In this document: positions 9,037-36,090 of the stretch, in pieces
Numbering within the stretch: the stretch's first letter is position 1
Layout of the letters: each line of letters starts with the position of its first letter
Source of the DNA: an uncultured Candidatus Saccharibacteria bacterium
GTDB taxonomy: Bacteria > Patescibacteriota > Saccharimonadia > Saccharimonadales > CAIOMD01
Reading direction: 5' to 3'
Length of the DNA stretch: 62,907 nt
NCBI GenBank assembly: GCA_964566075.1
Contig: CAZMHJ010000001.1
Location: 9,890-72,796 of the forward strand
Notes under the pieces: model-generated
The model's database searches: none
What the model was told of the DNA's origin: nothing
The model's input: only the letters and a program-made list of their open reading frames with translations
Program-made: the position numbers and the translations under genes

Positions 9037-10311
9037 CTAGCGTAATTGGGCGATAATTTCATCCATCGAAAGGTGTTTTTCTTCACCACTTGCTAAATCT
9101 TTGAGTGCGTATTGATTATTCGCAAGTTCTTGATCACCAACAAATAAGACACGGCTATAGCCAGCTTTATCAGCACTTTTAATCTTCTTATCCATCTTGC
9201 GGTCAGTTGCATCAACGGCCACATGTATATCTGCAGCCCGCAGCTGGCCTAATAGGTCTTGCGCACCTGCATATACATCACCAATAAGTAATACAGCAAT
9301 ATCTACAGGAGAGACGAACTTAGGTATTAAATCATGTAACACTAAAAATTCGTGAATGGTCACATCACCCATACCAAATCCAACAGTTGGCACCGGTTCG
9401 ACACCAAATAAGCCTACTAAACCGTCGTAACGACCGCCACCAAACATGGATCGGTTATTATCCGGGTGGACATCCTTCATTTCAAATACGATGTCAGTAT
9501 AGTAATCAAAACCGCGCATTAAACTGATATCAAATGTTACATTTGTTACACCTGACCGCGCTAAAAGCATCTGGAGTTCGTGGACATGCTTGGCACTATC
9601 GTGAGCTTGTATATCTTGCGGTAATGCCTCAAAAGAAGTTACACGGAACACGTCATTAATTGCCTGCGCTTTATCACCAACAATTTCACCAAGAGCAGTA
9701 ATAAAATCAGGTTCTGACATTTTTTGGATGCGATCGACCAAGCGAATTACTTTTATACTGGTATCGTTATCAAGTGAAAACAGTTCGTTTAAAACAAAAT
9801 TTACCAGCTTACGGCTGTTAAGCAGGATTGTGTACATATCGCGCGTAGCACCAAACTGCTGCATCACACTATCTGCTACCATCACCAGCTCGTGATCGCC
9901 AGGCAAACCCGGTTCGCCAAATAGATCAACATTTAGTTGCCAGTGTTCACGTAAGCGACCACGTTGCGGACGCTCATATCGCCATAAATTAGGGATACTA
10001 AACCATCTTAGTGGGTATGCAAGTTCTTGACGCTTTGCAGCAACCATTCGGCTAACTGTGGGTGTCATTTCGGGGCGCAGTGTTACTTTACGACCACCCC
10101 TGTCTTCAAATACATAGGTCTGTTCATTTACAATCTCTTCACTTGTTTTAGCTAAGTAAAGTTCAAGCGGCTCAATAATTGAAGCGTCGTATTCTTCGTA
10201 ACCATACCGCTCAGCGACTGTACGCCAAGTATTAAAAATATAATCCTGTATACGCTTATCAGCAGGATAAAAGTCACGCGCTCCTTTATAGTTTTGTGTC
10301 GACAGTGCCAT
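9037..10311 (-). CDS. hisS: Histidine--tRNA ligase
   Basis: KGARDFYP, LRPEMTPTVSR, RYERPQRGRLREHWQ and GGGRYDGLVG are class II HisRS motifs. Confidence 0.93.
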   Translation of the reverse strand: MALSTQNYKGARDFYPADKRIQDYIFNTWRTVAERYGYEEYDASIIEPLELYLAKTSEEIVNEQTYVFEDRGGRKVTLRPEMTPTVSRMVAAKRQELAYPLRWFSIPNLWRYERPQRGRLREHWQLNVDLFGEPGLPGDHELVMVADSVMQQFGATRDMYTILLNSRKLVNFVLNELFSLDNDTSIKVIRLVDRIQKMSEPDFITALGEIVGDKAQAINDVFRVTSFEALPQDIQAHDSAKHVHELQMLLARSGVTNVTFDISLMRGFDYYTDIVFEMKDVHPDNNRSMFGGGRYDGLVGLFGVEPVPTVGFGMGDVTIHEFLVLHDLIPKFVSPVDIAVLLIGDVYAGAQDLLGQLRAADIHVAVDATDRKMDKKIKSADKAGYSRVLFVGDQELANNQYALKDLASGEEKHLSMDEIIAQLR

Positions 10312-12018: not shown

Positions 12019-13272
12019 CTATTTTATTGCAATTATAACTTGAGCGTTTTTGCCCCTGCGCAGCACAGCATAGCCGTTAATTGCGTCATCAGTGTCAAGC
12101 GTTGTTTTACTAAGTGGTATTTGCGATCCATTAACGTAAATTGCATTGCTGTCTAAAAATCGTCGAGCTTCACCCTTGCTACTTGCCAACCCAGCATCAA
12201 CTAGTGCGCCAGCCAGATCTACACCAGCAAATGCTTCAAACACACCCAGTTCATTTCCAAGCGCTTCGAAATCTTCAACAGTTAGCTCAGTGTACGCACG
12301 GGCACCAAACAGTACTTCGCTAATACGCTTAACACTCTCTGCGCGAGCTTCGCCATGGACAATCTTAGTAACTTCGTACGCAAGTGTTTTTTGCGCTAAG
12401 CGGCCGGCCTTGTCTTGTTCAAACTCAGTTATTAACGATTCTATTTCTTCTTTTGAAAGGAGTGTGTAAACCTTAAGGTAATCTGCAACACCTTCATCAT
12501 CAACATTAAGCCAAAATTGGTAGAACTGATATGGAGTTGTAAGCTCAGGGTCAAGCCATACTGCGCCTGCCTCACTTTTACCAAACTTTTTACCTGTTGC
12601 CTTGTTAATTATGAGCGGGGCACTCCAAATGTGAGCTTCTCCCCCCGCAATACGGCGAATAAGTTCAACACCCGCGATGCTATTCCCCCATTGGTCAGCA
12701 CCACAAACTTGCAGCGTTACTCCATGCTCACGATATAAATGCAAAAAATCATAACCTTGAATGAGCGAATAGCTAAATTCGGCATAGCTAATACCAGCGC
12801 CATCTTCACTTAATCTGCTTTGTACAAATTCGCGGCCAAGCATTTGCCGCATAGGTACGTGTTTACCAACATCACGCAAGAACTCAAGGTAATTAAGCCC
12901 CTTAAACCAGTCGTAGTTGTCAACCATCTCAACACTATAGCCAGCAAAAAGTTGTTGATATTGTGCTGCAATACCTGCTTTGTTGGCATCAACTTCTTCT
13001 ACGGTTTTTAAATCACGCTCTTCTGATTTACCATCTGGGTCACCAATTAAGCCGGTCGCGCCCCCAACTAATAAGATTGGTTTGTGACCAGCCATAATAA
13101 AATGACGAATCATCATACTCATCGCTAATTGGCCAATGTGCATCGATTTTGCACTTGGGTCTACACCCCAATAAAACGTTATCGGCTCGCCATCGAGTAT
13201 TGTTATGTCTTGAAACGTAGTTTGGTTTACAAAGCCACGCCACTGCAGTTCTTCTGAAAGTTTTGTATCCAT
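12019..13272 (-). CDS. tyrS: Tyrosine--tRNA ligase
   Basis: HIGH-like SMHIGQ, KMSKS-like KFGKSE and a C-terminal S4-like domain. The start is set to ATG 13270-13272 (MDTKLSEELQWRGF...). The track's N-terminal extension reads through a tRNA gene. Confidence 0.92.
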   Translation of the reverse strand: MDTKLSEELQWRGFVNQTTFQDITILDGEPITFYWGVDPSAKSMHIGQLAMSMMIRHFIMAGHKPILLVGGATGLIGDPDGKSEERDLKTVEEVDANKAGIAAQYQQLFAGYSVEMVDNYDWFKGLNYLEFLRDVGKHVPMRQMLGREFVQSRLSEDGAGISYAEFSYSLIQGYDFLHLYREHGVTLQVCGADQWGNSIAGVELIRRIAGGEAHIWSAPLIINKATGKKFGKSEAGAVWLDPELTTPYQFYQFWLNVDDEGVADYLKVYTLLSKEEIESLITEFEQDKAGRLAQKTLAYEVTKIVHGEARAESVKRISEVLFGARAYTELTVEDFEALGNELGVFEAFAGVDLAGALVDAGLASSKGEARRFLDSNAIYVNGSQIPLSKTTLDTDDAINGYAVLRRGKNAQVIIAIK

Positions 13273-13290
13273 ATCTGTTGTATATGGTAA

Positions 13291-13321
13291 CAAAACAAAA
13301 CAAAAACCCCAAAAAGGGGTT
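13291..13321 (-). terminator. Intrinsic terminator between tRNA-Leu and tyrS
   Basis: Minus strand reads AACCCC-UUUUU-GGGGUU followed by UUUGUUUUGUUUUGUU, ending about 20 nt before the tyrS ATG. Confidence 0.65.
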
Positions 13322-13328
13322 CTTGTTT

Positions 13329-13413
13329 TGGTACCGCGGAGAGGACTTGAACCTCCACGTCTTGCGACACTAGCTCCTAAGGCTAGCGTGTCTACCAATT
13401 CCACCACCGCGGC
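13329..13413 (-). tRNA. tRNA-Leu (anticodon UAG), class II with long variable arm, CCA encoded
   Basis: GCCGCGG-UG-GUGGAAUUGGUAGACAC-G-CUAGC-CUUAGGA-GCUAG-UGUCGCAAGACGU-GGAGG-UUCAAGU-CCUCU-CCGCGGU-ACCA. The cloverleaf was folded by hand. Discriminator is A73. Confidence 0.9.
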
Positions 13414-22905: not shown

Positions 22906-23382
22906 TTATTTTGGTTCGTAGTATATCCTCATCAAATACCCATAGGTACCAAACTCGTCGATTCTGCCATGAAGTATCACATCATAAACATTCAAACTTT
23001 GAAGGGCTTCAACTTCCCTTGCGGCATAATCAAGAAAAGAGGATATACCAATATTAGGGTCTTCATCCATATCCAGCTCAAATAAGTGAACCTTCTGATT
23101 ACTTCTGATACGACTATTGTAAAGCCTATTCTCATCTGTTGGTGAGTTGCTTTTAAGAAGCAGGGCATCGTCTTGAATTTTCTTATCAGATTTTCTTAGT
23201 TTATACACCTCTAATTCAAGTGTTGGCCATGTACTATCATCCACTGCATTTGAAAGATATAAACTTACAGAACGAGCATATCCAACAGATTTAACATCAT
23301 GGGCAAGACTTTTTAGCATATCAGGTAGTGATACTTTGCGATTGGTGTTCCCTGCTTGAAAATAATGTGTTTTCATATTCAT
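22906..23382 (-). CDS. Candidate cognate immunity protein of the RHS toxin, 158 aa (hypothetical)
   Basis: ATG at 23380-23382 overlaps the RHS TAA stop (TAATG). The protein starts MNMKTHYFQAGN... It has no TM segment and no known motif. The track's longer start at 23451 lies inside the RHS gene. Confidence 0.55.
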   Translation of the reverse strand: MNMKTHYFQAGNTNRKVSLPDMLKSLAHDVKSVGYARSVSLYLSNAVDDSTWPTLELEVYKLRKSDKKIQDDALLLKSNSPTDENRLYNSRIRSNQKVHLFELDMDEDPNIGISSFLDYAAREVEALQSLNVYDVILHGRIDEFGTYGYLMRIYYEPK

Positions 23383-26300
23383 TACAATACTACTGCACAC
23401 ACCGGTGCCGCAACTAAACAACCAGGACTCAACACTTTTGCACCCCACCATATGGCTATTAGAACACTAGCCGCTGCAGCCGTACCACCCGCAGCTTTTT
23501 TTGCCTGCGGGCTTACGCTCGGTAGACCTCCCGATGGAAGTGATGGTGGCCCTTTTCTATTATTCTTGTCTTTCGACTCCCTTGATTGTCTTTCACCCCG
23601 AATTTTTTCATTATACTTTTGTTTTGCTTTTGCGCTGTTCCAGTCCTTGGAGTTGTATTTATTCTTACCCTCATTCCACGCTTTAAGCTCCTTGAAGTTT
23701 AGCTTTTTCTCCTGTGCCTGCTGACGACCTCTCTGTGCCCTTTGACCAGTAAGATCATAATCAGTTATGGGATTATTCACATAGGCATATGCATTGTCAG
23801 TACCGCCTTCTATTGGATCAACTTGTGCAAATCGCCCTATGCTTGCTAGATATACACGTGCTCCCATTTGTACCACAGGGATGCTGAAGTTTGATTCAGA
23901 TAGTTTCTGGTGTTGCCCAATGTACGAGTAGCTTGCGCCCCTATCGGCATTAGTCGGTGCTAATTGGCCATCAATCAATTCACCAAACGGCCCTGTAACA
24001 TTTGTGCTCAGTAATGAGCCATCTGCTTTCGTCATCGCAAAGTTATCGCCATGTATATTTGGCAAGCTAAACGTCATTTGCGCACTTGGGTCACTCGCGT
24101 TTGGTCGAATTGTAACAAGCACGTTACCAGGCAGTGTCACATACTTTTCGACTACGTTCCATGCATTGTCTCGTATGAAGTCTGGTGTGTCACCACTACC
24201 CGTAAAGCCATAGAAACTATCGCCAGCTGCACTCCATGTAAAGTTTGCAATACTGTTGATATATCGCCCCATGATGCGACCTTGTACATCTCGGGTATAA
24301 TAGGTTGCGATTCCATTACCAGTATCAGAAGTGTACTGAACCACACCCGTGTTTCTATCTGAGGCATCATATGCAAATCGTACTGGCAAGTTTGATGTTC
24401 CGATTGCTGTTGTATTACCGTGGTCATCATAGTCAACAACCGCAAGTGATGGGTCTGAGCCTGCTAGTAATCTGTCGGCGCTATCGTAACAATAGTTCGT
24501 TGTTTTACCATTTATTGTTTGAGTAGTGCGGTTACCATTTTTGCCAGCATTTAAGTTTGCACTCGTCTGTGCGCATTGTGCGGCAGTAGCAGTACCAAAC
24601 CCATAGCTATAACTATTAGTACCGATTGTGGCGGCTGTTAATCTCCCCCCACCGTCATATGTATAGCTCTTTGCTAAACCATTTTCGGTACCACTTATTA
24701 CATCGCCACTTACAGTTCTATTAACTTGGTCACTGATGATTGTTGAGCCATCGCCAAGGGTATATGATAATCCGTTCATACGACCAAGGTTGTCTCGTGT
24801 AATAGAGCCTAGCTTCTGCTGATTAGCAGTTGGGTACGCAACGCTTGCAATTCGGCTAAACGTATCATACGTTACCGTAGCCAATACAACTGAGTTGAGT
24901 GATTGAGATACTAGGCGATCGTAATCATCGTAAGTGTATGTTTCTGTACCAAGAGGACTAGCACGACTTACAAGATGACCAGCATTGTCATACGCACTTG
25001 TAGTTACGTTGCTATGTGTGTCTTTGTACGATATAACCCTACCGAGCAAATCTGTCTCAACTATAATAGATCCGTTTTGGTCTGTCGTACTAGTAACTAG
25101 TGGGTTACCGTTAACGGCATAGTTGCTACTTATCGTGCGGCCTGCTCGACCGTTTATATCAGGTATGACCGTCGAGATAACTCGCCCACGCGCATCGTAA
25201 TTTGTGCAAGTCCATGGGTCATTATTAAACTTTGTCGCCACTACCCTGCCTGTTGAATCATATATCGTTTCGCTAGTTCGCGGAGTTTGAGGGCCAACCC
25301 CATCTGGGTCAGGTTCTATCTTGCCCTTTGCGAAGCCAGCTTGGCTAACAGGTGACGAGTTGGCATCACATTCATTCTTTCGAACCTCAGTAGCGCCGTA
25401 GTACAGATAGGTATAGGTATTACCGCCAGGCATTGTCTTACTTGTTTGTCGCATTAAACTACCCGCTTGATAAGGCTCGTATGTGTAGCTTGTTGTTAGG
25501 TTAAGTCCGCCAACGTCCTCAGTTACTGATTTAGCCTGTGCAAGCTCGGGTTGTGCGCCATAATCTGTCTTTGTAGTACTATCACCTGTTTGGCTATCAA
25601 ATACCTTACTGCTAGTTGTAAGTGCGTAGACTGGCTTTACGAAAGTTGGCCTGCTTGTTCCAAGTCCGGCGTTTGTATCGGTAATTCCAGGTCCAGACAA
25701 CCATAGTTCTAGTGCTCCTTGGTTATATCCCGTATGGCCATACGCTAGCTCAATTCTATAGGGTTTACCAGCCTCGGCAGTAAATGTGGCAGTCTGCCGC
25801 TTTTGGGTTACTCCCTCTGAACGGGTTCCAAGATTATTAATTAAAACGTTATCGTTAACCGTTAATCTTGCGCCATCGTCGTTCCATATATTGTATGTAT
25901 ATGTTCCTGATTGTGGGAACGTAACCGTTCCAGTAGCTCTAAAACCGTAGCCGTAGTATTTCGCATCGGGATTTTTTACAATGTTCGTTGCCCATATTGC
26001 AGAGTTATCATTCCCAAAAATTACGAGATTACCGTCGTTCTGCATAACTAAACTTCCAGAAGGACGGCCAGATGTTGCAGAAGCCCAGGTTGCCACGTTA
26101 TTACCGTTATATATTACTAAGTTTCCATCACCCTGAAGTACAAGCCGGCAATTTGCGCCACTTGTATTTGATGCCCAAACTACACCACTTGGACCGTAGA
26201 TAACCAGATTACCATCAGTCTGCATTATGAGCCTAAACTGGCCATCTTCTGACCATATCGACTGATTTGTACCAAGTGTGCCGCCGACCAATAATGAGGC

Positions 26301-29300: not shown

Positions 29301-30479
29301 GCCATTGTTCGATAAATACCCAGCGTTCATATAACAAGAACTTGACGAACAAACATAGCCATCAGACTTATAGGCAGTATAGTTCCAGCTTACATTTGAG
29401 CTTCGACGCCACGATGGGTCGATAATTATCGGAAAATCAGCAGTTTTTTGTTGTTTAAGCCATCCCCCATCGAGTGTTACGGTAAGAACCCCATTCTTGT
29501 ACTCTTGGGTTGCCTTAGTTTCGCTAATAGGACCTTGTGTTTGGAGTGTAACAGATAACGGCGCGAGCTGCTGCTCGGTACCCTCTACATCAAAGCCACC
29601 ACTAGCATTCTTTTTTAAATTTGCACCGGTAACTTTAAATGCATAGCTCGTTGTCGCATTTGCAGTTTTAATAATGATATCTTCCTTAAGAGCCCCACCT
29701 TTAACCGTGTAGCGTAAATCGACACCATTCCATAGATCTTTATAGGTAACTGTTTGCTTACCATCCTCAGTCGTTACCACAGGCGTAACCGATTTTGCGG
29801 CGCCCACAGGGAAATATGCTAACTTCGTATTACCTGATTCAATACGAATCATGCCTACCTTGTCATCTGATTTTGCAAAACGAGCTTGCCAATCGTTTGC
29901 GGCAAGCTTGTAGGTATCTAGTTTTTGCGTCTTACCCTTTACGAACGCGATTGCTTTGCCGACAACATTTGTACTGTCAGCTGCATTTGTATCTTCAACA
30001 AGCGTATTGTCAATTTTTTCCCACTTACCATTTTTTTGATAGTTAACTCTATCAAAATATTTCTTTACTGTTTTTTGACCATTACCAAGATCAAATGATT
30101 CAGAGTTCTCGGTTCGCTCAGATACTATTTCCGCTTGCTTTGTTGGTGCACTTTGTTTAGTTGTAGGTGAAGGTGGGTTTGATCCAAGTGTAGTTCCCTT
30201 GCCGATAGCGCCATTTACCTCAGCAGCTTTTTGAGAAGCAACCGCTAGCGGTTGGGGAGTTTTTTTACCTGCAGCCAGAGCCTTATCGGTACTCGCAGCA
30301 ATAGAAAGAGCCAGCGAAGCGACCATGGCGACAACAAAAAACAGCGCCGTGAGACGCTGTTTTTGGGAGTTAACCATTCTTAATGGGCGCACAAAGGCGC
30401 CATTCACCACGTTAAATAGGGACACTTTTGGAATTTTGGCGGTGTTTGTGTGGATGCGCTTCAAATGCAAATGTGGCAT
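23382..30479 (-). CDS. Giant secreted RHS/YD-repeat protein (2,365 aa) with three PA14 domains, a bulb-type lectin domain and a short variable C-terminal tip
   Basis: N-terminal signal/TM segment (LTALFFVVAMVASLALSIAAS). PA14-like segments at about aa 680-815, 828-975 and 1505-1605. Three QxDGNLVIY/F repeats at about aa 1396-1500. Many YD repeats (YDxxGR...). The RHS core ends YAYVNNPITDYDLTGQ, followed by 119 aa. Confidence 0.9.
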   Translation of the reverse strand: MPHLHLKRIHTNTAKIPKVSLFNVVNGAFVRPLRMVNSQKQRLTALFFVVAMVASLALSIAASTDKALAAGKKTPQPLAVASQKAAEVNGAIGKGTTLGSNPPSPTTKQSAPTKQAEIVSERTENSESFDLGNGQKTVKKYFDRVNYQKNGKWEKIDNTLVEDTNAADSTNVVGKAIAFVKGKTQKLDTYKLAANDWQARFAKSDDKVGMIRIESGNTKLAYFPVGAAKSVTPVVTTEDGKQTVTYKDLWNGVDLRYTVKGGALKEDIIIKTANATTSYAFKVTGANLKKNASGGFDVEGTEQQLAPLSVTLQTQGPISETKATQEYKNGVLTVTLDGGWLKQQKTADFPIIIDPSWRRSSNVSWNYTAYKSDGYVCSSSSCYMNAGYLSNNGWKGWRTVFWVSMPELPGKQILSANLIINKRSGIGTTEGLYTEVSRAACWGYNCIDWGSPRHSAWFGTNGNISMTALLQRQADIGDTGPTYILNGEERAYLTWKGFDADNSWIEYTFNSTPSVPTPLSPADKQVVVTDQPMLQVNPSTDPDGDPIQYYFRVSTGQDGETGTVINSGLISSTQWTVPEGVLQDGVTYYWHVYSHDSCGQYVGGTCDRWGSPINVWTRSFKYDARLGNDSAASFDDGGPVDVNLATGNVVTSAGTHTMSALGGNIGLSFDYNSPYRSKPGLTAEYYNNTSWSGSSAIRRIETNLNFPWNTGTPAAGVVNNDNFSMRLKGYFIAPKSGNYQFGFTADDYYALYLNNESTPAVSAGCCSNGNWTMGSRYFSEGQIVPMQMDYIEATGNGYLYVAVRIDGVEQQIQTNWLRTEPKTVSQNNGLMGRYFSASAGVSPTFPTDPMSSFLTRRETNMNFNWGEGSPMPYGPINNFAARYTGYFTAPVTGTYYFGTSSDDGSRIYLNGGTSAYQDDWKDTGSGIGYGPAVNLTSGQSIPITAEFYENLGAASFGLYVKGAVAEQIIPSAWLSTKINPLPNGWQMSVDADGDLAYDYANIQTQSVILYDAEGDQHEYKWNGSAYTPPVNEYGFLTKNADSTYTLIDSDGRTYTFNSAGQLTSTSTPNDDRKPTALIYGYDGTPARLTTIKDGADQTRMGTLYYSGDNNCGSVPNGYDSQPPFNMLCAFKTTDQQLSYLYYKNGQLARIVSPGGVTTTLGYDALGRLVQQQSSLAYDAVAAGIRQDNSTVTSQIDYDVVGRANSITLPSATEGGFRAKHNYNYLNNATQTNEVGEVEPKGYSQRVEYDSLYRTVKNYGKDGNATQQEWDAVKDLLLSSTDATGLKSTTIYDANDLPIDNYGPAPSVWFGTDRKPLATYTNQVPHTQTNYDEGINGLAVSWFNYVVTKDGGSLVGAPKYHTTGITPNKDRSWLGRDFRLDSVPFTPDNQTANAASLLVGGTLGTNQSIWSEDGQFRLIMQTDGNLVIYGPSGVVWASNTSGANCRLVLQGDGNLVIYNGNNVATWASATSGRPSGSLVMQNDGNLVIFGNDNSAIWATNIVKNPDAKYYGYGFRATGTVTFPQSGTYTYNIWNDDGARLTVNDNVLINNLGTRSEGVTQKRQTATFTAEAGKPYRIELAYGHTGYNQGALELWLSGPGITDTNAGLGTSRPTFVKPVYALTTSSKVFDSQTGDSTTKTDYGAQPELAQAKSVTEDVGGLNLTTSYTYEPYQAGSLMRQTSKTMPGGNTYTYLYYGATEVRKNECDANSSPVSQAGFAKGKIEPDPDGVGPQTPRTSETIYDSTGRVVATKFNNDPWTCTNYDARGRVISTVIPDINGRAGRTISSNYAVNGNPLVTSTTDQNGSIIVETDLLGRVISYKDTHSNVTTSAYDNAGHLVSRASPLGTETYTYDDYDRLVSQSLNSVVLATVTYDTFSRIASVAYPTANQQKLGSITRDNLGRMNGLSYTLGDGSTIISDQVNRTVSGDVISGTENGLAKSYTYDGGGRLTAATIGTNSYSYGFGTATAAQCAQTSANLNAGKNGNRTTQTINGKTTNYCYDSADRLLAGSDPSLAVVDYDDHGNTTAIGTSNLPVRFAYDASDRNTGVVQYTSDTGNGIATYYTRDVQGRIMGRYINSIANFTWSAAGDSFYGFTGSGDTPDFIRDNAWNVVEKYVTLPGNVLVTIRPNASDPSAQMTFSLPNIHGDNFAMTKADGSLLSTNVTGPFGELIDGQLAPTNADRGASYSYIGQHQKLSESNFSIPVVQMGARVYLASIGRFAQVDPIEGGTDNAYAYVNNPITDYDLTGQRAQRGRQQAQEKKLNFKELKAWNEGKNKYNSKDWNSAKAKQKYNEKIRGERQSRESKDKNNRKGPPSLPSGGLPSVSPQAKKAAGGTAAAASVLIAIWWGAKVLSPGCLVAAPVCAVVL

Positions 30480-30696: not shown

Positions 30697-31317
30697 TCAT
30701 TGCTGTACTCCGATTGGTTTTGCGATTACAACAAGTCTATCAACTGGGTTCCAGAGTGGTGTACACGTATAGAGTGTCAAACGGGTATCAGTTGTTGGCG
30801 CTTCGACCTCAACTTGATGAGCTGTCACAACTTTTTTCTCGGTAACGGTGTAGTGATAGGTTGTCGAACCCCATTTAAGGTAAATATCATCACCGATTTT
30901 TATCTTATCAAGGTGATAAAAGGGCTGTACTACACTTGGGTTATACGAAAAACGATGGCCAACAATAACCGTATTTCCACCTTTGTTGGGTGTAGGAGTG
31001 GCCGGTCGATGCCATAAGCCTTTATCGACCGTTTTTTCTGCCGTCCCCTCGATAACTGGCGCTAGGGCACCAATGGCTGGAATGTATAGTTGATCAGGGT
31101 TTGTCATACCTGTGCCGGCATCTGACTGTCCTGATTCAGTTGTGGCTGAAGACTCAAACTGTGTTTGTGCTCCACTACTCGCAAACCCAGGCCTTGCGAC
31201 GGTAGCGGGGCCATTAAAAAAGTAATCGAGTTGCGGTATAAGTGGCGCCAACAATATAAAAACTGCAAGAATAATGACAAACACGGTAAGCATATCGTTG
31301 AGAGACCGGTGTGTCAT
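30697..31317 (-). CDS. Sortase family transpeptidase
   Basis: N-terminal TM, catalytic His (VIVGHRF), TLYTCTP (TLxTC) and a downstream Arg (VDRLVV). It starts 25 nt after the adhesin stop. Confidence 0.88.
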   Translation of the reverse strand: MTHRSLNDMLTVFVIILAVFILLAPLIPQLDYFFNGPATVARPGFASSGAQTQFESSATTESGQSDAGTGMTNPDQLYIPAIGALAPVIEGTAEKTVDKGLWHRPATPTPNKGGNTVIVGHRFSYNPSVVQPFYHLDKIKIGDDIYLKWGSTTYHYTVTEKKVVTAHQVEVEAPTTDTRLTLYTCTPLWNPVDRLVVIAKPIGVQQ

Positions 31318-31342: not shown

Positions 31343-34300
31343 TTATCGACGGCGACTAACCGCGAATGCTCCACCAAGCATTGTAATAACAAGGATATAT
31401 CCAAGTGCAGTCAACGAACCAGAGCCTGTATCAACAAGCACTTGTGGCTTTTCTACCGTAGTTGTATGCGTATCCGTTGCACACGCTGTAACCACATTAT
31501 TCTTTGGCAACTGGATTGAATCAGTCGACACCTTAAGTAGACTAATTTCTGGATTTACTTCTTCTTGCTGTGGTTCTGCGCCACAGGTTTTCACGGTGTT
31601 AACTATTTGAGCACCTTCGCTACCGGCAGGTATCGTGTAGTTTGCAGTGTAAATCCACGTTTCGTTTACATCGAGTTTGCCATCACTATTAGTATCACCA
31701 GATTTGTAGACTCCATTGCCAGCAACGTTGTCAGCTACAGTAATGGTATCAAGCGGTTCGTCACCCGTGTTGGTAACCGTAAAGGTGTACGTAACCGTGT
31801 CACCAACTTTAGCGTTTGCTGGACCTGTCTTCACGACCTTAATTGCTGGGTGTAACACATCGAGTGTATGCGTATCTGTTGCACACGTTTGCGTGCCTTC
31901 TTCGTCATCTTCGTTGTAGCTATAGTCGCGATAGATGTTCCAGTTATCACCATAGTAGTCACCACAGGCTGTTACCGTGTTATTAACATCTGCGACTTGA
32001 GGAGTAGGAATAGTATATTTTACCGTACAGTATGCCCAATCGCCCGGATCAAGCCATGTAACTCCGCCACAATCTGCAGTTCCAGCAATATCATCAACAA
32101 CACTTAGGTTATCGATATAGGTATCACCAGAGTTATACACCCAGAAAGTATAAGTAACGGTGTCACCTTCGTGAGCCGTAGCAGGGCCACTCTTGTACAC
32201 TTCAAGGCCAGGGTGTTGATTATCGTTGTTTGTTATCTTACAGGTCACCGAATCACCAAGTGCCAACGTTAGTTCGTTGCCATTAAGCTGTCCGCCAGTA
32301 CACCACCATTGTCCTTGCGTGTAACCGTCTGGGCCTGATTCGCTGAGTGTGTAAGTAACGTTTGCTACCGCAGTTACCGACTCTACACCATTTAGACCAT
32401 TTCCGCTAATAACATCGCCATCATCAGATGGGGTGGCTGAAAGCGTCCAGTCACTTGGGTCGTTTTCGCCATTATTATTGTTAATGACCGTTTTCTTAAG
32501 CGTAAGCTTAGGAGCAATTGCAGTGTTTGTGACAGTACAAGTCTTAGCATCACCAAGCGCTACAGAACCATCACAATCTTCTGAATATGCGACCGAGTAT
32601 CCGTTGTGGCTACCTTCGCTCACTTCGTATTCACCAACGTTCAACGTAACATCAGTACCAGCTACACTACCGGCAAACTCATCATTCGATACATTATTGC
32701 CATCAACGTACATAGTAAAGTTACTAGCAGTTGCCGTTCCACCAGTCTCGCCATTTATGACGTGTTTTACCACTGTTAATTTAGGCTGTACTGCAGTGTT
32801 TGTAATTGTACAGGTATAATCAGCACCGAGTATCAATGCAAGCGTACTTTTTACGATGCTTGTTACGTTCGTCTTGTTGTTAACACAACTCCAGTCACTC
32901 GCTGTAAAGCCTTTTACAGGGCCTGATTCGCTGAGCGTGTAGCTTCCTGCGTTAACATTACCACTCACTGGTGTAGTGCCTGATAGGTGCGTTGGTCCGT
33001 CAGCAGTAAGTGTCCATTCGCTCGTACTCACCTTTGCACCATACAGATTTTCACCAAGTTTTTTAACAAGTGTTAATGCGGCACTATTATCATCGTTTGT
33101 TGCAGTACAAGTAACTTCTTGTCCGCTTGTAATTGTAACTTTATTATCTGATACTTTTGCGCCAACACAGTCCCAACCAGTAAGTGTATAGCCATCTGGA
33201 CCTGTTGACTCACTGAGCGTATAAGTACCTGCTTTGAACGAGTCATTACTTACCGCGCCACCAGCGCCACTGATGGTTGTAGGGCCAGTTGCTGTCAGTG
33301 TCCAATCAGTTGGGTCTGCAGTACCACCATTATTGTTAACTACGTTTTTTACTAGTGTTAGCTTTGGTGCCTTGTCGTCATTTGTAATCGTACATGTCTT
33401 AGTTTCGCCATTAGAAATCGAAACATTAGTACAACCATCGTATGATGTTGCATAACCATCTTTGTTCGCTTGTGTTTCGGTTACGCTGTAGGTGCCTTTA
33501 GGCAGATTGTTTATCTGGTTTTCACCATTTGCATTAAACCATTGGGCAGCGCCACCGTTAACTGAAAAGCTAAAGTCTGTTGCACTTGCCGTGCCGCCGT
33601 TATCATTCTTAACAACTTTTTTAACGATGAGCTTAGCTGGTTGTGTAGTGTTTGTAATTGTACAAGTAACGTTTTGGCCAAGTGCAACTATTAGTTGGTT
33701 AGCTTGGAGTGTTCCACCGTTACACGACCAGGCGCTTGCGGTAATACCAGCAGTAGGACCTGTCTCGCTAAGTGTGTAGGTGCCAGCATTCACATTACTG
33801 TTACTTGCGCCACCCGCACCACTTACAACAGTTGGGCCAGTTGCTGTCAATGTCCACGCTGTTTTTGTAAGGCCACTATTAAATTGATCAACCAGATTCT
33901 TAACTAATGTTAGACCCGGAGCATCATCATTGTTAGTAATAGTACATGCAGTCGTCTGGCCGTTTGCAAGTGTGATTTTACCGTTTGTAACAGTTACGCC
34001 ATTCGTACATGTCCAAACACTTGCCGTATAGCCACTTGGGCCACCGGTTTCACTAAGAGTATAGGTGTCAGCCTTAAAATTACTACCACTGGTTGCGCCC
34101 GCACTACCAGTTGCGCCAGAGAGGTTGGTTGGTGATGCAAGCGCACCGGTTGCCTTGAGTGTCCAGTCGGTTGCGTTGGCGGTACCGCCATTATCTTTAA
34201 TTAAATTCTTGATGAGCGTTAGCGCTGGTGCTTTATCGTCATTCGTAACAATACAAGTCTTAGTTTCTCCTAGAGCAATAGTGCCAGAACAATCGGTGCC

Positions 34301-35860
34301 AAGCGACTTAGTGTATGCATTATCGGCATTTTCGTTAACACTGTATGAACCAGGGTTTAATGTCACCGTTGTGCCGTTTTCATCACCTGCAAAACTAGCA
34401 TTACTAACATTAGTACCGGTAACATTCATCGTAAAGTTAGCGGCTACTTTAGAACCACCGTTATCATTTACAACATGCTTTTTCACGATGAGTTTTGGCG
34501 CAACATCACTGTTGGTAATTGTACAAGTGGTTGTTTGGTTGTATGACACAACAACGTTCGTACATGTGTTACCAGTCATTTCGTAACCACCAGTATTTGG
34601 GTTAACCTCTGTTACTGTGTATGTACCCGTAGGTAATGTAACTGACTTAGAGCCATTGTTGCCAGTTGTATTAACAAAAGAATACTGCGTGCCATCAACA
34701 ATAAACGCAAAGTCAGCAGCTTTTTTGGTTCCACCATGAGTATTATTAACGACTTTATTAACCGTTAAGGTACCTTTTGTAGCTGTATTAATAAACTTAC
34801 AAGAAACAATATTATTTGCCGCTATTTGAATACCAGTGACTGCATCGCCGTTCTTTGAACCATTCGTGGCAGCACCTGTACAGCTTGCTGAAAGCAACGT
34901 GTAGCCTGTTTTTTGAGTCTCATTAACCGAGTAACCACTGGCAGCGTCAACCTTAACTGCTGGAGTCTTACCAGTCGCGTCGGTCTGGGTTGCTGCTGGG
35001 TTTGAGCCACCATTAATATCAAACGTCCAACCAGCACCTGCGAGCGTCTGATCGTTTGTTGTATTTAGGTTACCATCTGCATCGATATATTTAGTTGTTG
35101 TGATTGTTCCGCCACAAGTCTGGCTTGCAAAAGTAGCAAGACTGGCTGCGAGTTGGCTAAAGTCAGTTGTTATAACATCAGAAGTAAGTACATTACCTGT
35201 GTTTGCATTTGGGCCAGAGATAGCCTTGAGTCGGTCTAGCGAGCCACCCGTAAGACCAATACCAAGTGCGAGCATACGTGTACCGCCATTTTTTACAGTA
35301 TTAGCAGCAATAATTGCAGGATCAAGATGAGCGTTTGGTTGGCTCGTTGTTACACCGCCAACGGTATTGCTTGTTGTTGGGTCGCCATCGGTAGCAAAAA
35401 TAACAAGATTGGGGTTAGAGGTACCACTCGAAAAGGTACTATTAGCCTTAATAAGACCGTCTTCCCAGTTTGTATACCCACCACCAGTGCTAACAGAGTC
35501 AATTGCGTTATTAACCGTAGTAGTGTTGCTGGTGAAATTCTGAAGAACGGTCGCACTGGTTGCAAAACGAGTAACTGAAAATTGCGTAGGAGTTCCACTT
35601 AGCGCATTTGTAAATGCTTTTAAAGCAGCTTTAAACGAGCTCATTTCACTTGAGCTAATGCTATCTGAGTTGTCGATAACAATCGCAATGTCTAGACCAC
35701 ACGCCTGACTTAGCGTCGGGTTAGCAGCGGGAGTTGTGTTCGAAGCGGCGTTGGCCGTCCCCCCTAATAATGTAAGTGGCCCGAATTGAGACACCACAAA
35801 AAGTAACGTTAGTATTGCCCACCTGGCCCTACTAATAGGGTTATATGCTCGCAGCTTCAT
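31343..35860 (-). CDS. Sortase-anchored surface adhesin, 1,505 aa: vWA domain, about 10 tandem Ig-like repeats, 2 DUF11-like repeats and a C-terminal sorting signal
   Basis: The start is set to ATG 35858-35860 (AAGGAGG upstream; MKLRAYNPISRARWAILTLLFVV... is a signal peptide). MIDAS motif VIDNSDS. Repeats end in TCTITN-like motifs. The C-terminus is LVDTGSG plus a hydrophobic stretch plus RRR. Confidence 0.88.
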   Translation of the reverse strand: MKLRAYNPISRARWAILTLLFVVSQFGPLTLLGGTANAASNTTPAANPTLSQACGLDIAIVIDNSDSISSSEMSSFKAALKAFTNALSGTPTQFSVTRFATSATVLQNFTSNTTTVNNAIDSVSTGGGYTNWEDGLIKANSTFSSGTSNPNLVIFATDGDPTTSNTVGGVTTSQPNAHLDPAIIAANTVKNGGTRMLALGIGLTGGSLDRLKAISGPNANTGNVLTSDVITTDFSQLAASLATFASQTCGGTITTTKYIDADGNLNTTNDQTLAGAGWTFDINGGSNPAATQTDATGKTPAVKVDAASGYSVNETQKTGYTLLSASCTGAATNGSKNGDAVTGIQIAANNIVSCKFINTATKGTLTVNKVVNNTHGGTKKAADFAFIVDGTQYSFVNTTGNNGSKSVTLPTGTYTVTEVNPNTGGYEMTGNTCTNVVVSYNQTTTCTITNSDVAPKLIVKKHVVNDNGGSKVAANFTMNVTGTNVSNASFAGDENGTTVTLNPGSYSVNENADNAYTKSLGTDCSGTIALGETKTCIVTNDDKAPALTLIKNLIKDNGGTANATDWTLKATGALASPTNLSGATGSAGATSGSNFKADTYTLSETGGPSGYTASVWTCTNGVTVTNGKITLANGQTTACTITNNDDAPGLTLVKNLVDQFNSGLTKTAWTLTATGPTVVSGAGGASNSNVNAGTYTLSETGPTAGITASAWSCNGGTLQANQLIVALGQNVTCTITNTTQPAKLIVKKVVKNDNGGTASATDFSFSVNGGAAQWFNANGENQINNLPKGTYSVTETQANKDGYATSYDGCTNVSISNGETKTCTITNDDKAPKLTLVKNVVNNNGGTADPTDWTLTATGPTTISGAGGAVSNDSFKAGTYTLSESTGPDGYTLTGWDCVGAKVSDNKVTITSGQEVTCTATNDDNSAALTLVKKLGENLYGAKVSTSEWTLTADGPTHLSGTTPVSGNVNAGSYTLSESGPVKGFTASDWSCVNNKTNVTSIVKSTLALILGADYTCTITNTAVQPKLTVVKHVINGETGGTATASNFTMYVDGNNVSNDEFAGSVAGTDVTLNVGEYEVSEGSHNGYSVAYSEDCDGSVALGDAKTCTVTNTAIAPKLTLKKTVINNNNGENDPSDWTLSATPSDDGDVISGNGLNGVESVTAVANVTYTLSESGPDGYTQGQWWCTGGQLNGNELTLALGDSVTCKITNNDNQHPGLEVYKSGPATAHEGDTVTYTFWVYNSGDTYIDNLSVVDDIAGTADCGGVTWLDPGDWAYCTVKYTIPTPQVADVNNTVTACGDYYGDNWNIYRDYSYNEDDEEGTQTCATDTHTLDVLHPAIKVVKTGPANAKVGDTVTYTFTVTNTGDEPLDTITVADNVAGNGVYKSGDTNSDGKLDVNETWIYTANYTIPAGSEGAQIVNTVKTCGAEPQQEEVNPEISLLKVSTDSIQLPKNNVVTACATDTHTTTVEKPQVLVDTGSGSLTALGYILVITMLGGAFAVSRRR
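32216..35125 (-). repeat. In-frame tandem array of about 10 divergent units of 85-105 codons inside the adhesin gene
   Basis: Recurring ...(K/A)L(T/I)(L/V)VK..V.NDNGG(T/S)...W/F...G(T/S)Y(T/S)(L/V)(S/N)E...C(T/I)(I/V)TN... blocks. The DNA motif gtaattgtaca recurs. Confidence 0.75.
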
Positions 35861-36090
35861 AACCGCCTCCTTTAAATTGCAAAAATACAGCCAGCCTGTT
35901 CTGTCCGATTTTTCAGACAATGAGCTAGTTGTATTTTTATTTCTCCGATACCCACACAGAGGAGGTTTCGCCACTTGCTCCTGCTATACCTGGCGACCAA
36001 GTATTTGGTATAGCTATCAACGCGCTCTGTTATTTCTAAATATATTCCTTTTTTTGCAATATGCAACCATAAGCTTAATAAAAGTAAGTA

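Follow-up and report, generated by a model that had tools for sequence, protein, structure and literature searches.

WapA of Bacillus subtilis is a Sec-dependent RHS/YD toxin in which a signal peptide, carbohydrate- or wall-binding domains and a YD/RHS shell precede a polymorphic tip, with an immunity gene downstream. Its known tips are soluble tRNases, and to our knowledge neither a basic hairpin nor a tail with the motif WWxxK-SPxCGP has been described among them. Here we analyze an RHS polymorphic-toxin gene of a Candidatus Saccharimonadales genome (23382..30479, minus strand, 2365 amino acids (aa), taken from the list of open reading frames (ORFs) and its translation) and, in particular, the 119-residue tip at the end of its product. 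The gene lies in a stretch of 62,907 nucleotides, positions 9,890 to 72,796 of contig CAZMHJ010000001.1 (assembly GCA_964566075.1), which we call the window. In a soil Saccharibacterium, an RHS/PA14 protein of 2487 aa and an immunity gene next to it were annotated in passing (PMC6031116), and both this protein and WapA match the window protein in overall architecture and logic.

Tse5 (RhsP1) of Pseudomonas aeruginosa, with its immunity protein Tsi5, shares with the window system an RHS cocoon, an aspartyl autoprotease motif, a short, partly hydrophobic and non-enzymatic-looking tip and an adjacent immunity gene; its 149-aa tip, Tse5-CT, inserts into membranes spontaneously (PMC9637101, PMC10684867). 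Tse5 is delivered by the type VI secretion system and has a PAAR-like N-terminus, whereas the window RHS protein has an N-terminal signal, PA14 and lectin domains. Moreover, Tse5-CT contains several transmembrane (TM) and amphipathic helices and Tsi5 is a membrane protein with two TM segments, whereas in the window tip a polybasic hairpin is followed by a single Gly/Ala helix, and the immunity protein there is soluble and acidic (isoelectric point (pI) 5.8). No sequence relation between Tse5 and the window tip was detectable, either in Pfam or by comparing the tip profile with PDB sequences, which gave no relevant match, Tse5 included (E<=1).

The LXG toxins TelE, EsxX and TspA, associated with type VII secretion (T7SS) of the b type, come from monoderm bacteria and resemble the window tail in having a small-residue-rich helix near the extreme C-terminus, while their cytoplasmic, soluble immunity proteins TipE and ExiAB (DUF5085) are built, like the window immunity protein, from duplicated strand-helix-strand-strand units (PMC10434224, PMC12744356). 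The (G/A/S)xxxGxxxG motif of these toxins is missing in the window tail, as in 52 of the 72 tails compared below, and the WWxxK-SPxCGP-x4-C-COOH motif of the tail family is not a zipper. Their scaffold is LXG and their immunity DUF5085, whereas here the scaffold is of the RHS/Sec kind, Pfam gives no DUF5085 match and the immunity gene tracks the basic module. For the Sec-secreted AbpT toxins of Gram-positive bacteria, a speculative model joins a cationic toxin domain to a membrane-active helix and makes import depend on the membrane potential (PMC13460014), the same physical logic that we propose for the basic module and the tail. In AbpT, however, the helix belongs to an N-terminal BetaH domain freed by a partner protease, whereas the window element is at the extreme C-terminus, and AbpT cargo is very cationic, whereas the cargoes of the tail besides the basic module are not. 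Finally, the pore-forming domain Tox-WTIP of RHS/PVC toxins, with two TM helices and the motifs RxxR and Wx[ST]IP, is known only from Proteobacteria (Zhang et al. 2012, PMC3482391). Like the window tip it sits at the C-terminus of RHS scaffolds and is small, hydrophobic and non-catalytic, but both of its motifs are absent from the tip sequence and we rejected this assignment.

We favour the reading that the tip and the ORF 22906..23382 form a toxin-immunity cassette, in which the basic module would be the effector recognized by the immunity protein and the tail a membrane-insertion or entry module shared with other toxins. We put the probability of this reading at about one half.

The tip belongs to a family with three parts

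The tip (residues 2247-2365, 119 codons, 23385..23741 on the minus strand, with the stop codon at 23384..23382) starts after the Rhs core. A preliminary description of this DNA had placed after ...DYDLTGQ a 119-aa tip, Lys/Arg-rich and then hydrophobic, and on these points it was accurate: the translation is identical to the one quoted earlier, the core match ends at residue 2246, the first 63 residues contain 21 K+R against 8 D+E, and the final ~37 are Gly/Ala-rich and hydrophobic. The tip had also been called unrecognizable and much shorter than typical nuclease or deaminase toxin domains. Unrecognizable it is to Pfam and NCBIfam, in which it has no family, and to a word-indexed homology search with the tip alone, which found nothing; this last result was misleading, as an exhaustive phmmer search against 1.84 billion representatives then recovered a family of 22 proteins at E<=1e-3, all matching at their extreme C-termini. 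Within this lineage, however, 119 aa is an ordinary length, the median for the tips of its 115 nearest relatives being 140 aa (range 4-210). Foldseek with the AlphaFold2 (AF2) model of the tip found no match.

An alignment of 16 tips (A1) divides the tip into a basic module, a variable Pro/Gly/Ser linker and a Gly/Ala-rich C-terminal tail. The basic module (tip residues 1-63, 23553..23741, minus strand, RAQRGRQQ...KDWNSAKAKQKYNEKIRGERQSRESKDKNN) is a predicted helix-loop-helix of pI 10.4, with the consensus AQxGxQ...KDYNSAxxKQKYNEKxxGERxSR, in which two positions, K40 and K46, never vary and three more, E18, G25 and R51, are nearly invariant. Using the family alignment, AF2 placed helices at residues 16-24 and 31-59, and the predicted local distance difference test score (pLDDT) was 92-95 across residues 11-40. 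A hidden Markov model (HMM) of the module matches 11 tail-bearing loci and 5 RHS relatives. The linker (residues 64-82, 23496..23552, minus strand, GPPSLPSGGLPSVSPQAKK) is rich in Pro, Gly and Ser, gapped and unconserved in the alignment, varies in length and sequence across the family, and is modelled as disordered, with pLDDT <50 over residues 61-87; its string 'LPSGG' is not conserved among relatives. The shared tail (residues 83-119, 23385..23495, minus strand, AAGGTAAAASVLIAIWWGAKVLSPGCLVAAPVCAVVL-COOH) consists of a Gly/Ala-rich helix, WWxxK and SPxC-x6-C, and ends 3 residues past 'CA'; W98, K102, S105, P106, C108 and C115 are invariant among the 16 tips. It is because of this conservation in a family that the pattern of the tip goes beyond chance.

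A second kind of C-terminus, short, aromatic/hydrophobic and unrelated to the first (for example ...ILFWLVDTFGPWKYLNL and ...LWLIDLFFPFQLF), follows the basic module in P0132, P0138, P0139, P0140, P0052, P0082 and P0002 and at L113:3001-4787.

We compared the shell of the window protein with its relatives, considering the best 120 of the 217 proteins found with the last 465 RHS residues (35-67% identity). In this set the named relatives are mainly Saccharibacteria/Patescibacteria and Actinomycetota. Most alignments cover ~74% of the query, that is, they end at the core, and the core motif was seen in 115 of the 120. Beyond it the tips change: HNH, Ntox21, Tox-REase-7/9, ribonuclease and DUF2599 domains were found together with many unassigned ones, while the same tail is present in just 2 of the 120 (P0032 and P0080) and the basic module in 5. 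The hypervariability expected after the core was thus observed when the tips of relatives were compared, which supports the view that this is a genuine polymorphic-toxin tip.

Many tips of this RHS lineage (67/109 of those of at least 60 aa) contain a Gly/Ala-rich hydrophobic helix, for example ...IPGPIGMASAAVSAAAYAAAGD..., usually near the N-terminal end of the tip (median 18% of tip length) and N-terminal to the toxin domain, while only 4 shells have one. This helix looks like a recurrent pre-toxin membrane element, and its frequency fits a general need for a membrane-active helper, which seems to be a requirement of this RHS lineage. In a soil metagenome (L001:1-4768), three consecutive orphan RHS cassettes, HNH-like, basic module with tail (P0032) and Gly/Ala-rich, are each followed by a small ORF; we take this locus to be a silent-cassette array.

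One could suppose that the window tip is a decayed low-complexity remnant, left without activity after loss of the real toxin domain. Its Lys-rich, low-complexity composition and the lack of a visible catalytic motif would agree with this, as would the deviation of the window tail from the consensus and the existence of remnant tails elsewhere. Yet full-length conserved members with invariant positions are found on diverged shells in two phyla, the basic module was folded confidently by AF2, the immunity gene is intact and translationally coupled, and the identical 2365-aa protein is present in several samples, so that we find decay barely credible.

Immunity genes and the domain that they follow

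The gene after the tip (22906..23382, minus strand, 158 aa, pI 5.8) begins with an ATG that overlaps the RHS stop (TAATG); as read from the DNA it is intact and translationally coupled to the RHS gene, and it encodes tandem strand-helix-strand-strand units of ~65-75 aa. Gene calls of the Joint Genome Institute (JGI) start it 21 codons later (137 aa). The ORF contains no hydrophobic segment. Its GC content is 36%, against 44% for the window and 47-48% for the tip and the neighbouring radA, just downstream, which is consistent with a horizontally acquired cassette.

The proposal that this ORF is the immunity gene of the tip is supported by its family membership. An HMM built from the proteins downstream of basic-module tips, the window one excluded, was run against all 622 six-frame ORFs in the window and matched just one of them, 22909..23466 on the minus strand, with two domains at E=8.6e-7, while the next best ORF reached E=1.3. 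The units had no match in Pfam, DUF5085 included, or in NCBIfam, and the protein profile had no relevant match among PDB sequences. A single-sequence AF2 model gave two strand-helix-strand-strand halves at low confidence (pLDDT 55.6), and Foldseek with this low-confidence model returned non-significant matches only (best E=0.07), several of them GyrI-like (SbmC, HEBP, BrlR).

Small acidic proteins of the strand-helix-strand-strand type (pI 4.2-5.8) are found downstream of the tips made of basic module and tail. They share the pattern ...hF.h...LP.LLR.VA..lE.L....ILDVTF.......VTVYY and are encoded by single genes, by a tandem pair of genes (L039) or by genes in which the domains are fused in tandem (L090, L031). 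Downstream of the Ntox37-like toxins with the same tail we found HEAT-repeat proteins of ~175 aa or Cys/His-rich proteins (...PH.LHYNPHTFPGRMGAYC...) of ~125 aa (loci L004, L017, L021, L023, L028, L035; L007, L022, L032). The 2012 catalogue lists Imm32 as the immunity partner of Ntox37.

We then counted the basic-type immunity family at those tail-bearing loci for which 300 bp or more of sequence was available downstream. Results showed that it is present at 8/8 basic-module loci versus 3/64 other tail loci, and at 0/61 of the intact non-basic toxins, this last figure being the informative half of the count, as most of the immunity sequences counted had also built the HMM. In the three exceptions (L041, L053, L093) what is left of the tail, 32-39 aa, lies behind another tip, which is intact and has its own immunity gene. 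The family also has a member at L113/L114 (E=1.2e-6), beside a basic module with the different, aromatic-rich C-terminus. These observations indicate that the immunity genes follow the domain ahead of the tail, not the tail.

The remnants at L093 (rc 12600-12719), L041:718-816 and L053, for example ...LAWWALKVASPVCGPAVVVCAVGF, each precede a basic-type immunity gene that is intact, and they are footprints of tip displacement or replacement by recombination. At L113/L114 the basic module is followed by a row of small genes, including the immunity-family member and a CdiI_N protein, which resembles a poly-immunity locus.

A C-terminal tail shared by unrelated toxins

The family consensus of the tail is a Gly/Ala-rich stretch followed by WWxAKxxSPxCGPxxxxCAxx[LF]-COOH, which we read as a helix, an interfacial WWxxK, a turn formed by SPxCGPxxxxC and a hydrophobic C-terminus of fixed position. 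To search for it we wrote by hand a degenerate DNA pattern that encodes W-x3-K-x2-S-P-x-C-G-P-x4-C-A, and scanned with it a set of genomes, one for each species, and metagenomes. In-frame C-termini with the stop exactly three codons past 'CA' accounted for 28/38 hits in genomes and 55/68 in metagenomes, while none of the 23 remaining hits had a stop at that place. At least 83 further toxins carry the tail, preceded by unrelated domains. Positions that the pattern does not force are conserved too: 88% of the tails have W at -21, 68% have P at -7 and 87% have F or L at -1. AF2 modelled tail helices at residues 79-104 and 112-118 with pLDDT ~50-60. The tail of the window (23385-23450) reads SPGCLVAAPVC, lacks the Gly-Pro after the first Cys and retains the C-x6-C spacing and the terminal CAVVL; Gly-Pro is present in 98% of 72 non-redundant tails, nearly all of which are pattern-scan hits in which this position is forced, and in 14/15 of the other aligned tips.

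Tail-bearing taxa belong to Actinomycetota, Chloroflexota and Saccharimonadia, and include Streptomyces, Amycolatopsis, Actinomadura, Kitasatospora, Knoellia, Solirubrobacterales, Acidimicrobiia, Anaerolineae, Chloroflexia and Saccharimonadia; the tail appears limited to lineages whose own cells, or whose targets, lack an outer membrane. Among the carriers, the large ones are RHS proteins, in part with PA14, Golvesin_C or DUF6531 (Pfam), whereas the small ones (~250-450 aa) have Ntox37-like HWDVQH...HTNV domains. One protein (P0137) combines an N-terminal region with an SWQG (WXG-like) motif, Ntox37 (PF15535) and the same tail, and the other domains seen ahead of the tail include one with an apparent PD-(D/E)xK-type nuclease motif. 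All carriers of assignable architecture (RHS repeats, Ntox37-like domain or basic module) are polymorphic toxins, and no ordinary surface enzyme or adhesin was recognized among them. Since the toxin domains and immunity genes change while the tail stays nearly the same in all three phyla, the tail would be a delivery or biophysical module rather than a component of the arms race, and its presence on both Sec-type RHS proteins and short non-RHS scaffolds makes a role at the target more likely than one in export.

The complete cassette of basic module, tail and immunity gene was found at L018, L039, L054 and L097, of Actinomycetota type (GC 0.64-0.65), and in the window, L031, L038, L090 and L096, of Saccharimonadia type (GC 0.44-0.54). 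The known hosts of Saccharibacteria belong to Actinomycetota. The occurrence of the cassette in both groups suggests exchange between the phyla or a shared target class.

Five tails, consensus ones included, had no match in Pfam or NCBIfam even at E<=10, and no description of the tail was found in the literature searched. Clustering of ORFs across the 83 tail loci revealed no gene family, be it of a processing enzyme or of an immunity protein, that accompanies the tail across toxin classes. The hydrophobicity of the tail is modest: its best 19-mer in the window has a simple Hessa sum (an approximate value that ignores position dependence) of +3.0 kcal/mol, the family median being +3.6 (range 1.6-9.2), compared with -0.17 kcal/mol for the TM segment of the sortase substrate encoded nearby. 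None of the 72 tails has K or R within the last 12 residues. The arrangement small-xxx-small-xxx-small occurs in 70/72 tails and a strict glycine zipper in 20/72, while the window tail lacks any GxxxG.

These features bear on the preliminary description, which had favoured a small membrane-inserting effector. The part of that claim which stands is that the hydrophobic end is a conserved membrane-type element. The part which does not is that this element is the toxin: as immunity tracks the Lys/Arg-rich module and the tail is common to unrelated toxins, equating the membrane helix with the toxin becomes the weaker reading. In its strongest form it would make the tail itself lethal, an oligomerizing small-residue helix that forms ion channels or pores in the target membrane, as in Tse5-CT, TelE, EsxX and TspA, with the basic module as a solubilizing or immunity-docking handle. 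The Gly/Ala-rich helix with its small-residue spacing is of the right kind, an RHS-encapsulated pore former is known in Tse5-CT (PMC9637101, PMC10684867), and some hydrophobic C-terminal segment always follows the basic module. Moreover, glycine-zipper LXG toxins are neutralized by soluble proteins with duplicated strand-helix-strand-strand units (PMC12744356), a topology that the window immunity protein shares, and GyrI-like proteins are among the weak Foldseek matches to its model. Against these points, those matches are not significant and come from a low-confidence model, there is neither a DUF5085 match in Pfam nor sequence similarity in PDB, and the strict zipper is a minority feature that the window lacks. 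Most of all, the tail hardly varies among three phyla while immunity differs with the upstream domain; were the tail both conserved and toxic, its carriers would need an immunity protein in common, and no tail-specific companion gene was found. Most carriers, in addition, have separate toxin domains, as already seen in the toxins with Ntox37 and the tail. We consider a lethal tail unlikely, although it is the strongest of the alternatives weighed here.

Several known elements were examined as identities for the tail and rejected. A sortase signal is not compatible with an unconserved 'LPSGG' placed 14 residues before the helix, with the missing basic C-terminus (0/72) and with a sortase that has its own substrate. 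A CaaX box would require Cys fourth from the end, whereas the invariant Cys is at -5 (C-A-V-V-L) in all 72 tails; in a bacterial lipobox, [LVI][ASTVI][GAS]C closing an N-terminal signal peptide, the invariant S and P at -3 and -2 before the first Cys would be out of place, as would the C-terminal location. The CGP-CTERM, PEP-CTERM, GlyGly-CTERM and other NCBIfam sorting domains gave no match at E<=10 to the five tails, and Cys-Gly-Pro sits after the helix. The strict glycine zipper, written as (G/A/S)xxxGxxxG or GxxxGxxx(G/S/T), fails as a definition, and a stop-transfer anchor disagrees with a helix that is only marginally hydrophobic and has no C-terminal basic residue.

The RHS protein and its neighbourhood

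From its N-terminus, the 2365-aa RHS protein consists of a signal or anchor, DUF7948, three PA14 stretches, B_lectin, the RHS/YD shell, the Rhs core and the tip. Pfam gave PA14 (9.3e-48, three stretches), RHS_repeat (1e-12), B_lectin and DUF7948, NCBIfam gave YD_repeat (2.7e-11) and Rhs_assc_core, and a TEN_YD-shell match was precomputed for the identical JGI protein. This identical protein occurs in an NCBI contig and, with the same gene order, in JGI contigs from three samples. The RadA protein, whose gene lies just downstream, clusters under a representative named Candidatus Saccharimonadales. Residues 35-69 (MVNSQKQR-LTALFFVVAMVASLALSIAAS-TDKALA, 30273..30377, minus strand), as read from the translation, are a putative Sec signal peptide or N-terminal anchor, and the hydrophobic core of this segment has a simple Hessa sum of -1.72 kcal/mol.

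The RHS-associated core (residues 2174-2246, 23742..23960, minus strand; TIGR03696, 38.1 bits versus a cut-off of 32.5) contains GRFAQVDPIEGG and GRFxxxDP and terminates in ...YAYVNNPITDYDLTGQ (also quoted as ...NNPITDYDLTGQ). The D-L-T-G that closes it is the version of the DPxGL autoprocessing motif found in this lineage: in relatives the core ends in DPVNxxDL[TSD]G (longer consensus Y.YP.DP.N..DL[TSD]G), and the sequences diverge immediately after.

A sortase gene (30697..31317, minus strand) lies directly upstream of the RHS gene. Adjoining it, the ORF 31343..35974 (minus strand) encodes a 1543-aa surface protein with VWA and DUF11 repeats and a canonical sorting signal, VLVDTGSG followed by a TM helix and SRRR. 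As the sortase has this substrate of its own, the RHS tip is not needed as one.

The sortase nevertheless raises the question of a role on the producer side, in which the tail would be an anchor or an undescribed C-terminal sorting signal that retains the toxin until contact; the preliminary description had named a tail anchor as its alternative. Its fixed position at the extreme C-terminus and its invariant motif are reminiscent of sorting signals, it is hydrophobic, and it is restricted to monoderm-type phyla. However, the sortase adjoins a substrate with the canonical end LVDTG, TM segment and SRRR, 'LPSGG' is unconserved, no motif stands directly before the helix, and the last 12 residues are free of K and R. 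By the Hessa sums given above, the helix is not hydrophobic enough to stop transfer efficiently. Carriers of assignable architecture are all polymorphic toxins, on both Sec-type and non-RHS scaffolds, and the tail is kept in displaced orphan cassettes. In addition, RHS autoproteolysis would sever the shell from the anchor, no enzyme gene co-occurs with the tail, and neither a CTERM-type family of NCBIfam nor any known anchor family was matched. A producer-side function is accordingly disfavoured, and we regard it as quite improbable.

The window contains no second RHS gene, no second tail and no orphan cassettes. The sole RNA gene found in it is a tRNA-Leu (anticodon TAG, 13329..13413, minus strand), which overlaps the start of the mechanically called ORF 12019..13407, so that the real start of this ORF is probably further downstream.

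Discussion

Taken as a whole, the system belongs to a kind already known, that of RHS polymorphic toxins followed by an immunity gene. Judged by the libraries and literature that we searched, the new elements are the basic hairpin module, its immunity family and, above all, the tail shared at the extreme C-terminus of many toxins. We propose a WapA-like system for use between monoderm-type cells, with a Sec-exported, lectin-decorated RHS protein. Its PA14 and lectin domains would bind the surface of the target, and the tip would be freed from the RHS cocoon by a cleavage that we infer to occur after DLTG. The tail might then insert into the exposed cytoplasmic membrane of a monoderm target, and the preferred topology would probably be cargo-in with the C-terminus out. 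For a basic cargo this orientation would be favoured by the positive-inside rule and the membrane potential, and the cationic hairpin would be tethered at the cytoplasmic face or carried across to it. Killing could follow from oligomeric membrane perturbation and depolarization or from binding of an anionic cytoplasmic target, while kin would be protected by the acidic cytoplasmic immunity protein, which would sequester the hairpin. Of all this, the sequences show the family, its modular build, its linkage to immunity genes and its distribution, while cleavage, direction of insertion and lethal activity are inferred.

Some of our data weigh against the toxin-immunity cassette read in this way. 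The ~60-aa Lys-rich hairpin has neither a recognizable catalytic site nor a structural match in PDB, and the contingency count has the partial circularity noted above, which leaves the 0/61 as its informative half. The tail is modelled by AF2 at low confidence, and in the window it departs from the consensus (SPGCLVAAPVC versus SPACGPxxxxC) and could be functionally weakened. Furthermore, duplicated strand-helix-strand-strand soluble immunity proteins are known that bind the glycine zipper itself (EsxX/ExiAB, TelE/TipE; PMC12744356, PMC10434224), so a soluble immunity protein does not exclude a membrane-acting tail. The charge of the cargo is also not uniform: ahead of the window tail there is a +15 polycationic segment, whereas the Ntox37-class cargo is not cationic (median net charge -0.5 per 115 aa). 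We rejected a general potential-driven import through cationic cargo, only the basic class being cationic.

A broader proposal can be made, namely that the tail is an autonomous cross-phylum membrane-entry module for the unrelated cargo of polymorphic toxins that attack monoderm bacteria, and that the basic hairpin and its immunity proteins are a new family shared by epibionts and their host phylum. We advance it tentatively and consider it somewhat doubtful in its full extent.

How protein toxins pass the cytoplasmic membrane of Gram-positive-type targets is incompletely understood (PMC13460014). The tail, as a short and sharply defined module that follows many unrelated toxin domains, makes this translocation question directly testable. 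If the entry reading is true, it would provide a recognizable entry domain for Sec-exported RHS toxins and apparently T7SS-type (WXG-like) toxins of Actinomycetota, Chloroflexota and Saccharibacterial epibionts, with a cargo that includes predicted RNases, nucleases and the basic hairpin. If the tail is merely a membrane tether, it would still give an annotation rule for more than 80 uncharacterized toxin genes. In either case, a cassette common to Saccharibacteria and Actinomycetota bears on the competition of these epibionts and on their interaction with their hosts.

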